DNA of 63,588 bases from Minisyncoccota bacterium. GTDB taxonomy: Bacteria > Patescibacteriota > Minisyncoccia > Phycocordibacterales > PALSA-1337. Positions 10,424 to 55,660 of the stretch are shown here, one piece after another; positions within the stretch are counted from its first letter, which is position 1, and every line of letters starts with the position of its first letter. A program made the position numbers and the translations under genes. The notes beneath the pieces are model-generated. The model saw nothing but the letters and a program-made list of their open reading frames with translations. It was not told the DNA's origin and did not search any database. The stretch spans positions 1 through 63,588 of the forward strand of contig JBAZBL010000007.1 of NCBI GenBank assembly GCA_041671485.1, written 5' to 3'.

Positions 10424-10429
10424 CTGTGG

Positions 10430-10858
10430 ACTACTGCACAATAAGCCGAATTCTGTGCGAAGCACCCCGAGTTAAATCGAGGGGTTTCGGTAACAATTAT
10501 CTATCTAGCCCCAAGATTGTTCTCGGGGTCAAGCGACTCAGACCAAAAGCTATATTACTAGCTATTGGAATACGGTCTTGCACTGAAGTAAGGATTTTGC
10601 CGTTGCACTTCCTTGTTACCAAGGAATTCACCCTAAATATACTTGCGCATATCGAGGGTACCTCTGCCTTTCGGCTTTGGCGTCACTGTTCGCACCTCTA
10701 ATCAAAGACCAAATTGATTTGACGGGTATTACCCGCTACTATTCTGCCTTATGAAAGCGATCGCTATCCAATCTTCACAAGGCCAGTGTTCGGACTTTCC
10801 TCTCCTCGACTCGGTGCCAAATAGGCACCTCGCTCGGAGCAATTGTCTTGTGCAGCTA
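10430..10858 (-). ncRNA. rnpB: RNase P RNA (bacterial type A-like)
   Basis: The minus strand carries the universal P4 halves GAGGAAAGTCCGAAC and ACAGAATTCGGCTTAT. P1 pairs CTGCACAA with TTGTGCAG. The region is GC-rich, and the ORFs called here are spurious. Confidence 0.9.
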
Positions 10859-10863
10859 TCAGC

Positions 10864-10892: not shown

Positions 10893-10915
10893 GATACTGT
10901 CCTTTTAGATATTTT

Positions 10916-11063
10916 AGCTTGGAGAATATGCTCCCTTACCTCCACGCAAAGTCACCATTCCAAATTGCAACCGCATTTGCTTACAAGGATTCAGCAAATG
11001 CGGGCAATTTGTTCATGGTTCAGATCGCATTGCGTGTCGGTTCGAGAGCATATTCTCCAAGCT
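10916..11063. repeat. 18-bp perfect inverted repeat enclosing a 112-nt structured core (element C)
   Basis: agcttggagaatatgctc ... gagcatattctccaagct. Inner hairpin accgcatttgct/agcaaatgcggg. The right arm ends 3 nt from the nrdJ stop codon. Confidence 0.6.
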
Positions 11064-11066
11064 AAA

Positions 11067-13394
11067 CTACACAATCTCACAAACTCCAGAGACACAAGCC
11101 AATTCTTTCTTGAGATCTGTTTCATTTTGCTTTTCATAGGTAATTATCTTGGAATAATCTATATGTTCTAATCTCTTTGAAAGTTCCCTAAAAGTCTTTT
11201 CATCTATCGCTTCATATGGTGCAAGTTTATAGACATGATCTTCACGAGGCAAGAATGATAGACCACCAACAATATTCCAATTTTTATAAACCCAATTTGC
11301 AACTTCTATCCATTCATCATTCCCTATTGATATAGTTACAGATGGATTGTGTTCGGTGAAATTGATCTTGACCATTTTCCAATACTCGAGCTGTTCAATA
11401 GCACTAAGGTCATTTTTGAAAGTTGTTGTTCCCTTTGGTGCAGACACTGGAAATTCCAAAACAAATGTCGTTGCATTTTCTGCAGTTTGCCCAACTTCTG
11501 GGAAAAACGGTACACCCTGATCTTTTAACATCTTGAATAATGCATCTGTCGAAGATATTCGTACTCTACGAACATAATATTTTGCATGACGTGGATGCAT
11601 ACCAGATGAACAGTCAAATGTTTGAGATCCATTACCAGACGGTTTGACACACGTTACAGCAGTCGAAGCAGATATACCAAATCGTTTTGCATATTCTTGA
11701 TTGACTCTTATAGCTTCATCACGGAGTCTCTTCATGACTTCTGGCTTCCTTACGGCTGGACAATCCCATTGACCAGTGATAGATACTCCCAACAATCTCT
11801 CCTTTTCACAGTTTTCTCTCCATTCTTTGGAAAGATATTGAAAATTTGTCAGCATTGACTGATATGTACCAAGAATCGCCGCAATGCGAATCTTTTTCAT
11901 AAGAGTTCTCTCTGTATCTTCTGACCTTGCAACGACTTCGGAAAGATTACAAAATTGCTTTGATTGAAGTATTATCTCACCACATGGATTTACACCTATA
12001 AGTCCAATGATATGTTGTCCAGACGAATCGAAATATCCTTTGTATTCTTTTAGAACTTTTATACGACGTTCAGGCAAAGTAAGTGCTAGTGAACCGCGGT
12101 TGAATATACCTCTTTCTCCTGACTTGCTCTCGACTAGGGCCATCCATTCTTTTAGAAATTCTTCATTTGTTGGTTTATTGATATATACTGCAGAATTATT
12201 GGCCAACATCCTATGAGGATATGTCATATAGAATGCACCTTTCTTGGCATCACGTATTTCTGAATCATCGAGGTCAGACAAAGAGATAAGGGCGCTTCTC
12301 CTTACTCCACCAGAAACTATACATTCGCCCATCATACAAATGATGTCGTGTATATCTATATTTCTTAGTCTTCTGCCTTGCCTATCGAACATAATCTGAC
12401 GAGTGAAAGCCAATAAGCGTGTGAGTGGTTCTGGGCCAGATGCTTTACCACCACCTATTTTGAGGCGAGCTCCCAATGGTCTGATCTGGGAAAAGTCAAA
12501 ATCAATATCCTTACCCGATGCCCAAGCATTGGCACCAACAACAAATGCTTCACACCAACCTTCTTTGGAATCAGCGACAATATGAGTTTTGATTTTATCA
12601 CCAGTCTGAATCATGATTTGTGGAAATTTCTGTACATTTGCACTTTCTGCAGAAAAGCCTACACCTGTACCATTCATAGATATATACATGATTTCAGAAA
12701 GATCCTGAAATGATTCTGGTGCTATATAAGAACAATTGTATGCACATACATTTGTTCTTCTGGCTGCTGGACCAGCGAATTGCAAGAGGCGCATAGATGG
12801 AATTGCTGATTGTGTCAAGATATTTTCTCTTATTTCCTTATACTCTTCTTCTTTGAGTTTGCTTCCCAGATTTTCTTTCATGAAACCGATATACCTATCT
12901 ACTGTTTCTATCCAAGTTTCTCGACGATTTTCCTGATCTATCCAGCGTGAATAAGTCCTATAATAAACAAACTGTCCAAGAGCATTACGAAAATATTTCT
13001 TTGAATCACTAGCAAGCTTGCGTACATGCTCTGGTACTTCATAGCCTTTTGCACGTATCTTTGCTCGCTCTTCTCGATAGAGAACATAGTGCTTGGCGGC
13101 TTTGACATAGTCGGAGCGCATCAATTCTTGCTCAACAATATCCTGAACTCCTTCAACTGTAGGCAAGAAGTTCTTGAATTTGCGTTTTATGCGTATGAGT
13201 TCTGCATGAACCTGTAGAGCAACTGTCTTTGCTTCTTCCATTGAACCTTCTTGGACAGTATTCATACCCTTCCAAATAGCATTTGTGATTTTATCAATAA
13301 GAAAAGGCACTATTCGACCATCTCTCTTTATTATTGTGGGGATGGAAGGAGCCTTTACCGCTTGCCCCGAAGCGGTTTTTTTCTTTTTTGGCAT
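11067..13394 (-). CDS. nrdJ: Class II (adenosylcobalamin-dependent) ribonucleotide reductase
   Basis: 775 aa with active-site motifs NPCGEI and CNLSEV and a C-terminal redox Cys pair. Confidence 0.9.
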   Translation of the reverse strand: MPKKKKTASGQAVKAPSIPTIIKRDGRIVPFLIDKITNAIWKGMNTVQEGSMEEAKTVALQVHAELIRIKRKFKNFLPTVEGVQDIVEQELMRSDYVKAAKHYVLYREERAKIRAKGYEVPEHVRKLASDSKKYFRNALGQFVYYRTYSRWIDQENRRETWIETVDRYIGFMKENLGSKLKEEEYKEIRENILTQSAIPSMRLLQFAGPAARRTNVCAYNCSYIAPESFQDLSEIMYISMNGTGVGFSAESANVQKFPQIMIQTGDKIKTHIVADSKEGWCEAFVVGANAWASGKDIDFDFSQIRPLGARLKIGGGKASGPEPLTRLLAFTRQIMFDRQGRRLRNIDIHDIICMMGECIVSGGVRRSALISLSDLDDSEIRDAKKGAFYMTYPHRMLANNSAVYINKPTNEEFLKEWMALVESKSGERGIFNRGSLALTLPERRIKVLKEYKGYFDSSGQHIIGLIGVNPCGEIILQSKQFCNLSEVVARSEDTERTLMKKIRIAAILGTYQSMLTNFQYLSKEWRENCEKERLLGVSITGQWDCPAVRKPEVMKRLRDEAIRVNQEYAKRFGISASTAVTCVKPSGNGSQTFDCSSGMHPRHAKYYVRRVRISSTDALFKMLKDQGVPFFPEVGQTAENATTFVLEFPVSAPKGTTTFKNDLSAIEQLEYWKMVKINFTEHNPSVTISIGNDEWIEVANWVYKNWNIVGGLSFLPREDHVYKLAPYEAIDEKTFRELSKRLEHIDYSKIITYEKQNETDLKKELACVSGVCEIV

Positions 13395-13548
13395 ATTGCG
13401 TTGCAGGCGGTGCGCCGCTAGTGCTTATTAATTGTTAATGATAATTTTCTGTAGTAAGTAAATTTATTCTACTCCGAGTATGCAAGGAGAGGAAGTGTGG
13501 ATAACGCTTTATAGCATGAGATTTCAAAAAAGTAAAAACTCTTTTGTT

Positions 13549-13738
13549 TTGTAAATATGAATATGCAATTTTGGAGTTCTGCGTAACTCGTTCGGTAAAT
13601 TTCTAGATAAAAGGCTCGGGGATTTGTAAACAAATCCCCACAACAACGCCTTTTACCAAGAAATTTATACTCACCCTGCCTGCCGGCAGGCAGGTCAAAC
13701 AGTACTCGATCTCCAAAATTGCATATTCATATTTACAA
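13549..13738 (-). repeat. Nested-hairpin structured element, copy A (core oriented on the minus strand)
   Basis: 28-bp perfect closing stem (13549-13576 / 13711-13738). The core shares 4 collinear conserved blocks with copy B at 17877-18069. Confidence 0.75.
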
Positions 13739-13741
13739 AGA

Positions 13742-14299
13742 TCAAAAATTAAGAACTGTTCCAGTTGCAATACCCAAGCGATCGCTTGCACCAGCATTTA
13801 CTTCAAGGACAAACTGTATATCAGATGGTGGATAGAAAAACTGAGGGAAAGTATCTGGTGATACATCCTTTGCAATACCGACAACTTCACGGTTTGAACG
13901 AATCCATATAATATCAATTGGAAAATTCATATCTTTCATCCAGAAACCATACTTCCCTACACTTGGAAATATGAATAACATTCCAGCATTATTTGGTAAA
14001 GATTCCCTATTGCTCAAACCCAATTCCCTTTGCGTAGGGTTATTGGCTATTTGCACTCTCAAAGTATCACTTTTTAGTTTTATCGTCGTTGTTGCATAAG
14101 ATTTATCGAAGAATTGTAATTCTGATTTATTTTGATTTATATACCGATCAGTAGAACTAGCAAATTGATTAGTCGAACTAGCTAGAAATTCTCCGAGAGA
14201 TGGAAAAGCTTTTGTCGAAATCATATAGTTCGCCAGAATAACTATTCCGACAATCCCAACTACTGGAATAATAAATTTTGAAAAAGTAGATTGTGGCAT
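13742..14299 (-). CDS. DUF192-family protein
   Basis: 185 aa: N-terminal TM, then GLSNRESLPNNAGMLFIF...FWMKDMNFPIDIIWI...VLEVNAG, typical of DUF192/COG1430. Confidence 0.75.
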   Translation of the reverse strand: MPQSTFSKFIIPVVGIVGIVILANYMISTKAFPSLGEFLASSTNQFASSTDRYINQNKSELQFFDKSYATTTIKLKSDTLRVQIANNPTQRELGLSNRESLPNNAGMLFIFPSVGKYGFWMKDMNFPIDIIWIRSNREVVGIAKDVSPDTFPQFFYPPSDIQFVLEVNAGASDRLGIATGTVLNF

Positions 14300-16973: not shown

Positions 16974-17864
16974 TCACCACCTTCCTCCTGCTCCCCCACC
17001 ACCCGACATACCGCCACCAAATCCGCCGAAGCCTCCACCTCCGAAACCGCCACGTCCTCCTCCAGAACCAAGGAACCACAATCCACCTCCATGACCACCA
17101 GAGCCAGGAGGATTCTTGGATACTATATAGTCAAATATTAGGCCTAGAATGGTAAGTATGATGATAGATATAAGGCCTATTGAGATGAAACCCCATATAA
17201 GTCCAATTATCGTCCCTATAACAGCGCCTATTGCACCACCCAACCACCAAGACTTCGTCTTTCCCAATATTCTAGCAAAAAGATTTAGAAGGATTACCCC
17301 AAAGAAAAATAGACCAAAAAGATTGTCCTCTGAATTGGATCCTCCTGAATTTGTATTTGATTTGTGATCTTCTATATATGCCAATGCATCAGGAGATTTG
17401 TATATAATTCCAGAAAGCATATCTACTGCTTTTACAATCCCACCTGAATAGTCACCTTCCCTGAAAGCAGGTGTCAATATATCTCTTACAATTATACCGG
17501 ACTGCAAGTCTGTAATATCTCCTTCCAGACCATAACCAACTTCTATCTGCATTTCCCTTTCATCCAATGCAATTAGGAGAAGCAAACCATTGTCTTTACC
17601 TTTCTGTCCGAGACCCCAATCTTCAAACAATTTCACAGCATAGTTTTGTCGAGTATCACCACCTAAAGAAGGGATTGTTACGACAGATATTTGTGCACTA
17701 GTAGTATTGTTCAATGATACTAATTTTGATTCAATTGCTTGCTCAATCTCTCTATCAATAATATTTGCAAAATCATTGACAAAACCAGTCGGCTTTCCGG
17801 GACTAACATAAGCTACCGCAATGAGCGGCAACATTATGAATATTGTGATCAGTAATTTACGCAT
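16974..17864 (-). CDS. TPM-domain protein (YgcG-like) with TM segments and a Gly-rich tail
   Basis: Signal peptide, TPM domain (VNDFANII...QISVVTIPSLGG...MQIEVGYGLEG), TM segments, and a GGGFGG tail. Confidence 0.8.
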   Translation of the reverse strand: MRKLLITIFIMLPLIAVAYVSPGKPTGFVNDFANIIDREIEQAIESKLVSLNNTTSAQISVVTIPSLGGDTRQNYAVKLFEDWGLGQKGKDNGLLLLIALDEREMQIEVGYGLEGDITDLQSGIIVRDILTPAFREGDYSGGIVKAVDMLSGIIYKSPDALAYIEDHKSNTNSGGSNSEDNLFGLFFFGVILLNLFARILGKTKSWWLGGAIGAVIGTIIGLIWGFISIGLISIIILTILGLIFDYIVSKNPPGSGGHGGGLWFLGSGGGRGGFGGGGFGGFGGGMSGGGGAGGRW

Positions 17865-17876
17865 AGTTTTATTTTA

Positions 17877-18069
17877 CCCAAGAAGTGCTCTGATTTGAAT
17901 TTCGAGTACTGTTTGAGCGACTACAAATTGCTTGATAAAATGCGTATGTTGTGGGAATTGCTACGATACCGAGACATGAAATGTCGAGGTATCGAGCAAT
18001 TCAATAGCATTTTATCTAGCAATTTGAGGAGTGAGTTACGCAGAAATTCAAATCAGAGCACTTCTTGGG
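17877..18069 (+). repeat. Nested-hairpin structured element, copy B (core oriented on the plus strand)
   Basis: 27-bp perfect closing stem (17877-17903 / 18043-18069). The core shares conserved blocks with copy A, and all helices covary. Confidence 0.75.
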
Positions 18070-18081
18070 CAAAAACAACCT

Positions 18082-18636
18082 TTAAAAATTAACCTTAGGT
18101 GCATTCTCCGCTCCACTGTCTGCTTCAAAATAATTGATATCATCGAAGCCAAACATAGAAGCTATGACTGATTTTGGAAATCTTTTTATCGTTGTCTCAT
18201 ATACGCGAACTCCATCATTGTACCTCTGTCTTGCAACACCTATGCGATTCTCCGTACCTTCTAGTTGTGTCATAAGGTTTTGTACTGTTTCTATTGATTT
18301 CAATGTAGGATAATTTTCCATAACAACCAATAGCCTACCAAATGCAGTCTCTACCTGACCAGCAGCCAAAGCCCTATCACTCGCTGTTTGTGCTCCAGAA
18401 TAACGTGTCCTAGCATCGGCAATAGCAGTGAAGATAGACTCTTCTTGTTTCATTGCTCCTTTTACAGATTCTACAAGGTTTGGGATGAGGTCAAAACGAC
18501 GCTGATAATCTGTTTCAACTTGCTGCCACTGTGCCGTCACACCCTCTTTCATGGAGACTAAACCATTGAATGATGTCCAGACATAGAGAGCAATAATCAA
18601 TACAATAACTCCGATTATTATTAATGTTTTTTTCAT
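18082..18636 (-). CDS. LemA-family protein
   Basis: 184 aa: N-terminal TM and a LemA domain (FNGLV...QRRFDLIPNLV...ENRIGVARQRYN). Confidence 0.9.
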   Translation of the reverse strand: MKKTLIIIGVIVLIIALYVWTSFNGLVSMKEGVTAQWQQVETDYQRRFDLIPNLVESVKGAMKQEESIFTAIADARTRYSGAQTASDRALAAGQVETAFGRLLVVMENYPTLKSIETVQNLMTQLEGTENRIGVARQRYNDGVRVYETTIKRFPKSVIASMFGFDDINYFEADSGAENAPKVNF

Positions 18637-23614: not shown

Positions 23615-23682
23615 ATTCTCATATTAACAGAATTTTCCAAAAGATTAAACCCTACTGCTTCTGTGAAGAGTACCCAATAAAG

Positions 23683-23734
23683 TATTTTATAAAGATTTTA
23701 TCGTTTCTTCAGCAAAACTTTATCAGGATTTTAT
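23683..23734 (+). promoter_or_regulatory. Array of ATTTTAT(C/A)-type direct repeats with 11-bp phasing in a divergent promoter region
   Basis: Sites start at 23683, 23694, 23716 and 23727 (spacings 11/22/11). A 35-nt block is near-identical to 55518-55552. Confidence 0.6.
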
Positions 23735-37356: not shown

Positions 37357-39711
37357 TCATTTTGCTACTTTCACTGCTTCTTCAAATGCAATAGATAATA
37401 GTCGAGAAGCGCCGTCAGATCCCATTGTTATGCCATAGAGAACTCCAGCACGAGACATTGTTTCGCGATTGTGAGTTATGAGTATGAGTTGGGATCTTCT
37501 AGATAGATCTTCTATCATATCTCCATATTTCTTTGAATTTGCTTCATCGAGTGCTGCATCAGTTTCGTCCAGAATGATAAAAGGTGGAGGATTGACTTGG
37601 GATATTGCAAACAGTAATGCTATTGAAGTCAATGCCCTTTCGCCACCAGAGAGCATCATTAGTCCTTTGACCTTTTTCCTAGGCAGACTGACATTTACTT
37701 CTAGTCCCAAGTAACCTTCTTCTTGTATTTCATTTTCTTCATCAATACTATTTGCAATCCTCTCTTCAGACAATATTTCATCCAATTCCCCTATATCACT
37801 CTTTTTTCGTCTTTTTATTTCTCTTACTGCTTCCAATTCGGCCTTACCACCACCAAACATGAGTACAAAGAATTTTTGGAATTCAGCATTTATTTTCAAA
37901 ATACCACTTTTGAATTCAAAATCAATACGCAGATCGAGATCTGTTATCATTTTGAGCAATTCTAACTTTGCTTTCGCCAGATCCTCCAATTCTTTCCCTA
38001 GAAATACATCTCTTTCTTCTGTCTCTCTATATTCCTTCATGACTTCATTGCCACCATAGCCACCAGCATCCTCGAGACGTATCTTTAATTTCTCGATTTG
38101 TCTTCTACGACTTTCTTGCGCATCTCGATCTATTCGGTCGTTCCCGTCGCAGGCGGCGACAAGTGTCGAACGAGGCGAAGCCGAATGTGAGACACTTCGT
38201 CGCGCCGAGGAGGGAACGACCGACAATTGGTCGGCTGACGCATAATCTAACACTTCCCTACCAATAATAATTCCTGCCTCTCCCAAATCCCTCTTCATAG
38301 ATTCTTCATCATGAATCACTTTGTTTAACTCATTTGTAAGATCAGAGACTATATTTCGTAGTTCATTTTGTTTTGCAATTATTCTAAAAACATCTTTTTC
38401 TGCATCACGATTTGTATCTTTCTCTTTCTCTAGAGATTCTTTTAGACCCACATATTTGTCATTTATCTTCTTCTCTTCTTCTATTATAGATCTCAATTTC
38501 TTTTCCAATTCACCTTTATCTCTCTCCAATTTGCCAACTTCTTCTTTGAGATCTACATTGAAGAGTGAATCTATTACTGATTTGTGTTTACCGATAAATT
38601 CTTTGAGAGTCTTTATGATCTCAGAGAAGAGTTTCCTGGCATCATCAAAAATACTAAAGCTTTCGATATTTCGAACAACTTCTTCTAGGTCTTTCAAATA
38701 TACAGTTTTCGATTCTTCATTTTTTATTTTATAATTCTCTTTTTCAATTGCCCTTTTATTTGCATTTATCTCTCCTTCTATCCTTCCAACATCCCTCATT
38801 ATCTCTTCCTTTTTACTCCTTTCCTCTCTCAACCTTTTTTCGAGTTCTATCAATTCATGGCTTTTATTGTCTTTATTCTTAGAATTGGTAAGCACATCCT
38901 TTGCTTTTTCGAGTTCCTTTTCGAGAAAAGCAAGATCTTTCCTTGGCTCTGACAGTAGAGTGGTCAATCTCTCTTTCTCTGTTTTTACATAATAGTCTTC
39001 AATAGAAAAATATTCTTTGTATAGAGTAGTTAGCTCTTTGCGCATCTCTTCTGCTCTCTCTACTTTCTCAACTTGTTTTTTCAAGAATTTCAAATGTGGT
39101 GCAATCTCTCTTCGCAATGATTCTACTTGATTCATATTTTCTTCTGTCTTTTCGAGCTTCCTTAGGCTTTCAATCTTTTTCCATTGATATACCTTAAGAC
39201 CGAGTGCATCTTCTATGATCTCTCTCCTTTCTCTCGTAGAAGCAGAAAGCACCCTATCTGCCTCTCCTTGAGATATGATATGGTGTCCTGTTGCTCCGAC
39301 ATGAGCATTTGCCAATAATTCAGCGATATCTCTCAAACGGACTTGACTGCCATTTAGTAGATATTCATTGGAATTATCTCTATGTACTATCCTCTCGACC
39401 ATTACTTCATCAAAATCAATATCTTTGAATATTCTCCTAGAATTGTCGAAAGCAAGTTTTACATTTGCTCTATTTGCCCTCCCTGTACCCGATGAACTAT
39501 CTCCCCCTCCATTCCAGATCATATCTTCTCCCCTCTTGCCTCGAAGAGACTTGATAGACTGCTCTCCTAGTACAAACTGGAAAGCTTCTGCAATATTGGA
39601 CTTGCCCGAACCATTTGGTCCAACAATGCCAGTTATCGCTGAAGTAAAAGACAGCGACGATTTTTTGGCAAATGATTTGAAACCAGAAAGCTCAAGGGAT
39701 TTGAGATACAT
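37357..39711 (-). CDS. smc: SMC-like chromosome partition ATPase (short, 784 aa)
   Basis: N-terminal Walker A GPNGSGKSN, long coiled coils, C-terminal signature LSGGERALTSIALLFA and Walker B ILDETDAALD. Confidence 0.85.
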   Translation of the reverse strand: MYLKSLELSGFKSFAKKSSLSFTSAITGIVGPNGSGKSNIAEAFQFVLGEQSIKSLRGKRGEDMIWNGGGDSSSGTGRANRANVKLAFDNSRRIFKDIDFDEVMVERIVHRDNSNEYLLNGSQVRLRDIAELLANAHVGATGHHIISQGEADRVLSASTRERREIIEDALGLKVYQWKKIESLRKLEKTEENMNQVESLRREIAPHLKFLKKQVEKVERAEEMRKELTTLYKEYFSIEDYYVKTEKERLTTLLSEPRKDLAFLEKELEKAKDVLTNSKNKDNKSHELIELEKRLREERSKKEEIMRDVGRIEGEINANKRAIEKENYKIKNEESKTVYLKDLEEVVRNIESFSIFDDARKLFSEIIKTLKEFIGKHKSVIDSLFNVDLKEEVGKLERDKGELEKKLRSIIEEEKKINDKYVGLKESLEKEKDTNRDAEKDVFRIIAKQNELRNIVSDLTNELNKVIHDEESMKRDLGEAGIIIGREVLDYASADQLSVVPSSARRSVSHSASPRSTLVAACDGNDRIDRDAQESRRRQIEKLKIRLEDAGGYGGNEVMKEYRETEERDVFLGKELEDLAKAKLELLKMITDLDLRIDFEFKSGILKINAEFQKFFVLMFGGGKAELEAVREIKRRKKSDIGELDEILSEERIANSIDEENEIQEEGYLGLEVNVSLPRKKVKGLMMLSGGERALTSIALLFAISQVNPPPFIILDETDAALDEANSKKYGDMIEDLSRRSQLILITHNRETMSRAGVLYGITMGSDGASRLLSIAFEEAVKVAK
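38137..38221 (+). repeat. GC-rich palindromic element, copy 1, embedded in frame in smc
   Basis: ggtcgttccc...gggaacgacc outer stem, gacaagtgtc/gacacttcgtc inner stem, loop gaacgaggcgaagccgaatgtga. About 85 percent identical to copy 2. Confidence 0.8.
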
Positions 39712-40066: not shown

Positions 40067-40765
40067 TCACCACCCCTTCACCTCGAGTGCCTTCTCTGCT
40101 GCTTTTTGTTCTGCCTCTTGTTTGGAAGGACCAGAACCAGTAGCGACTTGAACATCGCCTAGAAATACTCCCAAAGTGAATTGTTTATCATGGTCAGGAC
40201 CAATTTCCTTCAGAGTTCTATAAGATGGAGTAATACCCACTTTGTCTTGTGCAACTTCCTGGAAACGACTCTTTGCATCTATCCAAGTTTTGTTTTTGAC
40301 TATTTCTTCTATATCTATCGTGTTTAGCAAATGATTTGAGATAAAGTTGGCCGCAGCATTGTATCCACGATCTAGATATATAGCGCCTATTATTGCCTCT
40401 ACTGCATTGGCGAGAATAACGGAGCGGGCACGACCACCATCTTTGGCTTCACCTTTTGAAAGCAAAATGTAGTCATTCAAGTTTATAGATTGAGCAACTT
40501 TTGTGAGACTAACGGTATTCACGAGAGCAGAGCGGAATGCTGTTAGTTCACCTTCAGCTTTCTTTGTGTATTTCCTGAATAGGAAACTTGTCACTACCAA
40601 TTCCAATACTGCATCGCCTAGGAATTCTAGTCTTTCATTGTGTTCCATTCCAGAAACACGATTTTCATTCAAATAAGAGCGATGTGTACAAGCATTTTGC
40701 AAAAGCGAAATATCGTCAAATTCGACTCCTATTTTATCTGCAAATTCTTTGAAATCTGTTTTCAT
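40067..40765 (-). CDS. rnc: Ribonuclease III
   Basis: Signature ERLEFLGDAVL and a C-terminal dsRBD. Confidence 0.93.
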   Translation of the reverse strand: MKTDFKEFADKIGVEFDDISLLQNACTHRSYLNENRVSGMEHNERLEFLGDAVLELVVTSFLFRKYTKKAEGELTAFRSALVNTVSLTKVAQSINLNDYILLSKGEAKDGGRARSVILANAVEAIIGAIYLDRGYNAAANFISNHLLNTIDIEEIVKNKTWIDAKSRFQEVAQDKVGITPSYRTLKEIGPDHDKQFTLGVFLGDVQVATGSGPSKQEAEQKAAEKALEVKGW

Positions 40766-40791: not shown

Positions 40792-40881
40792 TTTTCGTCG
40801 CGACCGTCGAGGCGGCGACAAATGTCGAACGAGCGAAGCGAATGTGAGACATTTAGTCGCGCCGAGGAGGGAGCGACGAAA
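40792..40881 (+). repeat. GC-rich palindromic element, copy 2 (intergenic, rnc/nusB)
   Basis: ttttcgtcgc...gcgacgaaaa outer stem, gacaaatgtc/gacatttagtc inner stem, loop gaacgagcgaagcgaatgtga. Confidence 0.8.
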
Positions 40882-55494: not shown

Positions 55495-55518
55495 AGGATT
55501 TCCTAACGTTTGCGCAGG

Positions 55519-55581
55519 ATTTTATCGTTTCTTCAGCGAAATTTTATCAAAATTTTAGGAGAATTTTATCAAGATTTTATC
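55519..55581 (+). promoter_or_regulatory. Array of five ATTTTA(TC/GG) direct repeats with 11-bp phasing (candidate winged-helix regulator sites)
   Basis: Sites start at 55519, 55541, 55552, 55563 and 55574. The first 35 nt are near-identical to 23693-23727. Confidence 0.6.
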
Positions 55582-55660
55582 GCTCTTTGTTACACTTCTA
55601 GTAGATTATGTGTCGACATAATCAATTATAAAGTCATTTTTTGTATTATGATTGCAGATA

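Follow-up and report, generated by a model that had tools for sequence, protein, structure and literature searches.

The window analysed here, a stretch of 63,588 nt, carries a nested palindrome, copy B, that wholly occupies the gap of 217 nt between its LemA and TPM genes (17865-18081). Copy B is a genuine and complete member of a previously undescribed, dispersed family of non-coding nested palindromes of 160-220 bp. We put at roughly 0.5 the probability that the family is selfish palindromic DNA, which behaves like ERIC, Correia or RPE elements and is kept via a folded single-strand form. Nothing yet shows that copy B is a small-RNA gene.

Copy B and its family

ORF calls as well as Pfam agree with the earlier note in placing copy B between the LemA stop codon (18082) and the TPM start (17864). 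The span given there (17877-18069) describes a real hairpin and has to be widened, i.e., imperfect pairing reaches the LemA stop codon on one side and the TPM start codon on the other. An inverted-repeat search yields outer arms (17865-17903 / 18043-18081) of 39 nt that are 90% complementary. Within these arms we recovered the perfect stem of 27 bp that had been reported (17877-17903 / 18043-18069), which lengthens to 32 bp with one G.T. The middle helix (17924-17943 / 18007-18026; 20 nt) is 95% complementary. The apical sequence cgataccGAgacat-gaa-atgtcGAggtatcg maps to 17964-17994 and shows the described tandem GA/GA on the plus strand, i.e., TC/TC on the minus strand, as its sole imperfection. 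All parts are listed in Table 1.

Table 1. Positions in the window of the hairpin elements, their parts and the adjacent genes.
Feature	Position	Strand	Remark
Copy B, whole nested-palindrome element	17865..18081	.	unit absent from sister species
LemA gene (context)	18082..18636	-	stop codon abuts copy B; ORF call and Pfam
TPM-domain gene (context)	16974..17864	-	start codon abuts copy B; ORF call and Pfam
Copy B P1 5' arm (model strand)	18043..18081	-	distal part unique to copy B
Copy B P1 3' arm	17865..17903	-	ends directly at TPM ATG (17864)
Copy B conserved 5' box CTGCGTAACTC	18033..18043	-	bulged U, then GCGUA pairing with UACUC of the 3' box
Copy B conserved 3' box TCAAACAGTACTCGA	17902..17916	-	
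Copy B P2 5' strand AAATTGCTAGATAAAATGC	18007..18025	-	conserved CTAG/CAAG A.A mismatch
Copy B P2 3' strand GCATTTTATCAAGCAATTT	17925..17943	-	
Copy B P3, variable apical hairpin	17955..18002	.	tandem GA/GA (plus strand) at 17971-17972 / 17986-17987
Copy A, same family	13548..13739	+ (model strand)	2 nt past DUF192 stop; absent from sister species
Extra 20-nt mini-palindrome CCTGCCTGCCGGCAGGCAGG nested in copy A 3' loop	13675..13694	.	
Hairpin C, third large nested hairpin	10910-11069		starts at nrdJ stop codon, upstream of rnpB

Folded as RNA, copy B reaches -102.9 kcal/mol on the plus and -102.0 on the minus strand, while shuffled sequences reach -45 and -38, respectively (z about -15; 0/200 shuffles as good). 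The corresponding values for single-stranded DNA are -64.2 (+) and -63.3 (-), with z of about -14 to -15. That is, both strands of copy B are comparable in folding, as RNA and as ssDNA.

Copies A and B have in common an 11-nt box, a 15-nt box (the conserved boxes of Table 1) and a 19-bp helix with compensatory differences, and differ completely in outer stem and apical hairpin. They were described as lying in opposite orientation, which is correct: copy A on the plus strand aligns with copy B on the minus strand. The accompanying labels, B as antisense and A as sense, are valid for the purine-rich strand; which strand is called the core is a convention. Our covariance model is built on the complement of the purine-rich strand (minus for copy B, plus for copy A). 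Both orientations occur on one replichore, and a replication-strand bias was rejected on this ground. With regard to their cores, copy A is 98% identical to a copy at a different locus (L025, between an RRM gene and an MFS gene), and the nearest relative of copy B is L018 with 89%. A near-identical version of the mini-palindrome nested in copy A was also found after DUF192 in a distant relative (L044 5498-5521).

The degenerate pattern used for the census was designed after a third copy had turned up in a relative. It gives 11 matches in 6 MAGs and further ones in metagenomes; the exact, strict two-box pattern has no match in genome and viral collections. Taken together, degenerate patterns and covariance model yield 17 distinct copies, which come from no fewer than 7 Patescibacteria genomes or metagenomes. 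Three metagenome matches (L029, L031, L033) were dropped as chance hits. Also discarded was L027, an apparent inverted orthologue of L019, which proved to be a fold-back chimeric contig in which pairing extends over 64 nt of the PPIase coding sequence; as a near-duplicate of L019 it is still present in the alignment, which thus holds 18 sequences. Scores of the copies are 98-152 bits for one strand and 25-43 for the opposite one; within the window the model matches only copies A and B. Copies are few: the 63.6 kb of the window hold 2, and one MAG has at least 5.

No Rfam family matches at its gathering threshold. The only hits are sub-threshold, miRNA-precursor-like matches to copy A (34.9 bits against a threshold of 119), as is typical of any long hairpin. 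We found no match of the family in viral contigs, phages or plasmids, and literature searches gave no earlier description of it in Patescibacteria. Homologues of LemA place the host in Patescibacteria, near Taylorbacteria/Paceibacteria, and from the sequences seen so far the family appears to be limited to one Patescibacteria clade, namely the relatives of these groups, which are ultra-small bacteria living in groundwater.

P1 is near-perfect in every copy and comprises 28-40 bp, of which the distal 17-25 bp are copy-specific. Its proximal part (about 10 bp common to the copies) is conserved on the model strand as a T-run, a few bases and then CC. The family box CUGCGKA pairs with UMCUCGG, with a constant C.U mismatch and a bulged U; the box helix reads GCGGA/UCCUC in the family and GCGUA/UACUC in window-type copies, which is a compensatory pair. 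The following asymmetric internal loop is conserved as well (5' ..CUCGCUC.. opposite 3' ..UCGCUCARACAG, model strand). P2 is a helix of 19 bp, AAAUUnCUAGGUAAAnGGC / GCCnUUUACCAAGnAAUUU, with a constant A.A mismatch. The apical hairpin P3 is the most variable part and differs in every subfamily.

Pairing, covariation and the choice of strand

By RNAalifold and explicit pair counting, the alignment has 41 consensus pairs, 22 of them changed on both sides. Among the alignment cells of these pairs, 93% are paired compared to 77% in shuffles (0/500), and at most 50% when the partners are slid. Only 3/738 consensus cells are G.U. This is also reflected in the full hairpins of the 17 copies, where 1231 Watson-Crick pairs stand against 7 isolated wobbles (about 0.6%); the model strand has 2 of the latter and the opposite strand 5, counts that are small for a comparison of strands. 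Covariation restricted to Watson-Crick pairs is atypical of selection at the RNA level and would fit a constraint on DNA or on both strands.

The tandem G.A mismatch in the apical hairpin of copy B had been taken as a marker of the functional strand. We cannot uphold this, since the apical hairpin is the most variable part and the motif occurs in no other copy. The broader proposal that the plus strand is favoured for copy B survives in part: folding, loops and a loop helix speak weakly for it, the unbiased wobbles and Watson-Crick-only stems against it. Specifically, the purine-rich strand has the better RNA fold in 17/17 copies (by 7.8 kcal/mol on average), and the minimum-energy folds contain 33 G.U pairs on this strand vs. 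13 on the other. Its loops bring GAGCGA opposite GAGCGA and could form G.A pairs. Furthermore, four non-Watson-Crick states (A.C/C.A) of the 2-bp loop helix become G.U on the purine-rich strand only. These sequence features lean weakly towards the purine-rich strand, i.e., plus for copy B, as the functional one.

The same features are what one would expect from functional structured RNAs, cis-acting or small, that are read from the purine-rich strand, bind a protein with their GAGCGA/GAGCGA loops and are processed by RNase III in the stem. The strong covariation and the conserved asymmetric loops agree with such RNAs, as do the consistent energy advantage, the excess of G.U pairs in the folds and the four loop-helix states. 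Moreover, rnc is indeed present in the window, as had been claimed (40067-40765 on the minus strand, with the RNase III signature motif). On the other hand, wobbles are almost absent from the helices and show no clear strand bias, and with mixed orientation half of the copies would need a promoter of their own, yet no conserved promoter or terminator was found. Copies are also missing in close relatives, and none of the Rfam families matches. We thus regard structured RNAs of this kind as unlikely, and the suggestion of an independently transcribed sRNA finds no support. One candidate for a conserved internal promoter was rejected: in copy B the plus strand reads TTGAGC-17-TAAAAT, and the family consensus has TAAAAG in place of TAAAAT.

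Equally, the hairpins could be ordinary intrinsic terminators or attenuators that are merely long. Their position immediately after stop codons would suit this, and copy A lies between DUF192 and the conserved nrdJ promoter/leader. Yet neither strand has a U-tract after P1; T-runs precede the stem and A-runs follow it, such that the sequence after P1 is A-rich on both strands. A size of 160-220 nt with conserved loops, the absence from close relatives that have the same operons, and the fact that copy B splits a translationally coupled gene pair all argue against a terminator, which makes it highly improbable.

Presence, absence and rearrangement among relatives

The closest sister species shows identities of 95% for nrdJ, 90% for LemA and 89% for DUF192. 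At the locus of copy B, the sister contig L002 is without the element and the LemA stop codon overlaps the TPM start (TAATG). At the locus of copy A, the gap between DUF192 and nrdJ measures 152 nt in the sister (L042/L043) compared to 347 nt in the window; there, the sister lacks copy A and retains an intact conserved nrdJ leader. For both occupied/empty pairs, the whole hairpin, base to base, is the indel unit. The empty-site comparison suggested in the earlier note came out in favour of an insertion, one of the options raised there for these oppositely oriented copies: both have empty sites in the sister species. Its further idea that terminator hairpins are targeted is refuted for both copies, whose empty sites carry no hairpin. 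Pre-existing palindromes in general were likewise rejected as targets, given that none is found at the empty sites and that the window has no simple long palindromes. No consistent direct repeat that could be a target-site duplication exists at the 17 junctions, and none at the two occupied/empty pairs; L032 alone carries a 7-bp repeat (GTAATTG) at its junction. The SMC-mreB junction was considered as a third occupied/empty pair and dropped, as synteny differs in the window.

Two further observations concern the copy A locus. Downstream of DUF192, the window and its sister have class II nrdJ, and a Taylorbacteria relative has class I nrdA-nrdB (L038 15124-19428 vs. window 11067-14299); by sequence, the RNR type is replaced at a conserved DUF192 locus. 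About 150 nt upstream of nrdJ (window 13395-13545) are almost identical in the sister and contain TTGCAT-17-TAGAAT as well as a GC-rich hairpin GCGGCGCACCGCC, which are likely the nrdJ promoter and a leader or operator.

L037 has an empty LemA-TPM junction and L035 an almost empty one. The H41/H51 lineage carries an element there and is not a sister of the window: its LemA identity is nearer to L037 and L035 than to the window. The H41 copy at this junction belongs to a different subfamily, with a core 82% identical to that of copy B and unrelated arms. Besides LemA-TPM, elements recur at the TIM-PGK junction and upstream of radC. Taken by sequence, this pattern of presence and absence favours repeated insertion, with some junctions used more than once. 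Empty sites do not prove insertion, because precise loss of a long palindrome is easy; ancient, selected elements with frequent precise loss rather than mobility could produce the pattern as well. In L038, the junction holds an unrelated sequence of 240 nt. This Taylorbacteria spacer (10700-10800) contains an inverted repeat of 22 bp; the TPM ribosome-binding site and ATG lie within its 3' arm, and the repeat may form a hairpin that sequesters translational signals.

Copies had been said to lie directly 3' of stop codons, and in most of the 17 loci they start 0-15 nt past the stop. Orientation relative to the flanking genes is mixed (6 sense, 7 antisense), and these genes are housekeeping ones (G6PD, TIM/PGK, PK/RadC, HisRS, SMC/MreB, YbeY, PGI, PPIase). 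Within the 4-20 kb around each copy we found no adjacent transposase and, except for one serine recombinase near L006 that is absent at the other loci, no integrase, HUH or other recombinase beside any copy.

These data also bear on whether the hairpins are folded ssDNA sites for a dedicated strand-specific recombinase or transposase, i.e., either a non-autonomous 'hairpin transposon' or a gene-shuffling recombination site. Stems that are Watson-Crick-only and variable in sequence, combined with conserved unpaired bases, are known from attC, and the location directly after stop codons, the stable ssDNA fold on both strands and the RNR gene types that differ between relatives at the DUF192 locus would be in line with it. 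So would L011, where the arrangement around pgk resembles a recombination product: upstream of pgk and of a family copy there is a 5' half-site of the 'fam2' hairpin (see below) with its arm, and downstream of pgk a full core is followed by the complementary arm. Against such a site speak the lack of a recombinase beside the copies (save the one near L006), the two orientations on one replichore in the window, and that no arrays were seen. It is also the centre of the hairpin that is conserved and not its base, the reverse of attC, and neither an RYYYAAC nor a GTTRRRY box is present. We consider this reading quite unlikely.

Four copies of the H41 genome illustrate how core and arms behave: cores are 94-98% identical and P3 97%, distal arms are at random level, and the boundary lies at the T-run. 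At the TIM-PGK junction of two genomes (TIM proteins 66% identical), the arms can still be aligned, with an identity of 65% that no shuffle reaches. Either arms would be replaced at copying, or cores would be homogenised within a genome while arms stay local. Two ideas on the origin of the arms were discarded. As guides or spacers they should match elsewhere, and no other match exists among the sequences analysed here or in viral contigs; as inverted copies of the target flank they should be found at the empty sites, and neither arm is present at the two.

Flipping was observed in related hairpins. The asymmetric interior of hairpin C is inverted relative to nrdJ in the sister contig L042; hairpin C is no family member, as the covariance model gives no match. 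L011 and L014 differ in the orientation of the related 'fam2' hairpin that lies downstream of pgk. This hairpin has the boxes CTGCGGA / GTCCTCGG in common with the family (L011 1345-1404, 2850-2985; L014 1-95). Flips, mixed orientation, and arm-to-arm identity without G.U intermediates would all follow from recombination or template switching between long perfect arms.

Long perfect inverted repeats around a core of about 120 bp, flipped relatives of the hairpin in close species and promoter-like hexamers on both strands of copy B raise the question whether the element is an inverton, in which an asymmetric core with a promoter or terminator flips and alters the expression of the downstream gene. 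Each of the two copies examined shows a constant orientation across its independent Logan assemblies (2 for copy B, 4 for the H41 LemA-TPM copy; 6 altogether), and for the H41 copy the ENA/NCBI assemblies agree. The family consensus does not retain the promoter-like sites, and a scan finds them no more often than in shuffles. There is no adjacent invertase, the flips are seen only between species and only in other hairpins, and the nested helices P2 and P3 are not predicted by such a model. An inverton is accordingly very unlikely.

Independent short-read assemblies all break inside P3. Seven Logan contigs (L004, L005, L007, L008, L040, L041, L042) consistently terminate at the 5' edge of the innermost palindrome or slightly within it, which makes these hairpin elements a systematic cause of assembly breaks in these genomes.

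Some other features of the window were noted in passing. A second family of GC-rich hairpins (38134-38222, 40797-40879, and L044 5490-5600) has a variable outer stem and the core GGCGGCGACAAGTGTCGA...GACACTTCGTCGCGCCGAGGAGGG. One copy is inserted in frame in SMC, similar to RPE in Rickettsia genes, and adds 24 residues compared to L015; another is located between a nusB-like gene and rnc, and Rfam gives no match for this family. Positions 10426-10859 on the minus strand match the bacterial RNase P RNA over its full length (69.9 bits, E 5.5e-21, below the Rfam gathering score of 100 and hence missed by a default scan) and are probably a divergent CPR rnpB. Finally, the 8-mer ATTTTATC forms clusters in two intergenic regions (23681-23733 and 55518-55582); these clusters may be sites of a regulator.

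Relation to known repeats and interpretation

A close resemblance in behaviour is to ERIC/IRU, the imperfect palindromes of about 127 bp in Enterobacteria. Both are non-coding, intergenic within transcription units and not fixed in orientation; related species differ by presence or absence of the entire element, internal nested insertions are possible, hairpins form in the mRNA, and no transposase is known. They have no sequence similarity, and where ERIC copies share the whole sequence including the ends, our family is copy-specific in the outer 17-25 bp and conserved in the centre. Correia elements of Neisseria (CREE/NEMIS) are likewise hairpins of about 100-200 bp next to genes that are polymorphic between strains, are co-transcribed, offer their stem to RNase III and contain an internal protein-binding site. 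We found neither their conserved terminal inverted repeats of 26 bp nor their TA target duplication in the family. Rickettsia RPE and organellar palindromic repeats are comparable as selfish hairpin insertions in reduced genomes without an identified transposase; unlike RPE, family copies are seen only between genes, and the sequences are unrelated.

Integron attC sites also follow ORFs and act as folded single strands, with conserved structure, free stem sequence, Watson-Crick-only pairing and conserved unpaired bases. They conserve the R boxes at the base and vary in the centre, whereas the family conserves the centre and has a copy-specific base; its conserved part lacks RYYYAAC / GTTRRRY boxes, and its copies are single, with no IntI or intI gene in 4-20 kb of flanks. 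REP/BIME/REPIN are palindromic and extragenic as well, follow stop codons and evolve in concert within a genome, but their size of 20-40 bp, the GTAG/CGTC head, the hundreds of copies and the RAYT partner are not seen here. With classical MITEs (including Correia, RUP and Nezha) the family shares being small, non-coding, multi-copy and polymorphic between relatives. Conserved terminal inverted repeats are missing, the distal arms being at random level, and so is a target-site duplication of fixed length. Going by these comparisons, the family would be a variant of palindromic intergenic repeats that fails the defining tests of classical MITEs, attC sites, REP elements and every Rfam family.

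We therefore picture the element as selfish palindromic DNA rather than a strand-specific RNA gene. It would be propagated and maintained through a folded single strand, which could be a replication or repair intermediate or a processed transcript. The conserved loops imply a trans-acting factor, which would be encoded elsewhere and recognise them. Intrastrand templated correction, together with arm-to-arm recombination that can also flip such hairpins, may keep the arms perfectly complementary, and gene conversion or recent copying may make the cores of one genome alike.

In the LemA-TPM transcript, a hairpin of about -100 kcal/mol with a base helix of 32-39 bp would place the LemA stop next to the TPM start. 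This helix is a plausible RNase III substrate that would punctuate an operon which is translationally coupled in relatives; the cleavable dsRNA would be a by-product of the selfish element. These effects of copy B on the LemA-TPM mRNA, including the RNase III site, are what we infer from the predicted fold.

Several findings count against selfish DNA: there are no conserved termini and no consistent target-site duplication, no cognate transposase was seen, copies are few, and the distal arms occur neither at the empty sites nor in any other sequence analysed. The conserved asymmetric loops, the better purine-rich folds in 17/17 copies and the loop-helix G.U pairs are hints of a function tied to one strand, for which pure selfish DNA would have no need. 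A more unusual reading would be a new kind of mobile hairpin specified by structure or a trans-acting hairpin RNA or ssDNA, in which a factor reads the purine-rich loops of one folded strand and the distal arms are made anew at each copying event or carried as a copy-specific duplex. We hold this to be a doubtful proposition; a conserved 'handle' inside a variable perfect duplex has not been described for MITEs, attC sites or known guide RNAs.

For selfish palindromic DNA, our preferred reading, the setting is a group of tiny, gene-dense genomes, the Candidate Phyla Radiation, about whose repeats and non-coding RNAs almost nothing is known to us. The copies show that such genomes tolerate, and perhaps use, perfect hairpins of 200 bp between essential and even translationally coupled genes. 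An asymmetric conserved core within a copy-specific perfect stem, Watson-Crick-only covariation and the flipping of related hairpins in close relatives provide a handle on how uncultivable organisms create, correct, invert and lose long palindromes. A dedicated factor, should one recognise the conserved loops, would represent a new nucleic-acid recognition system.
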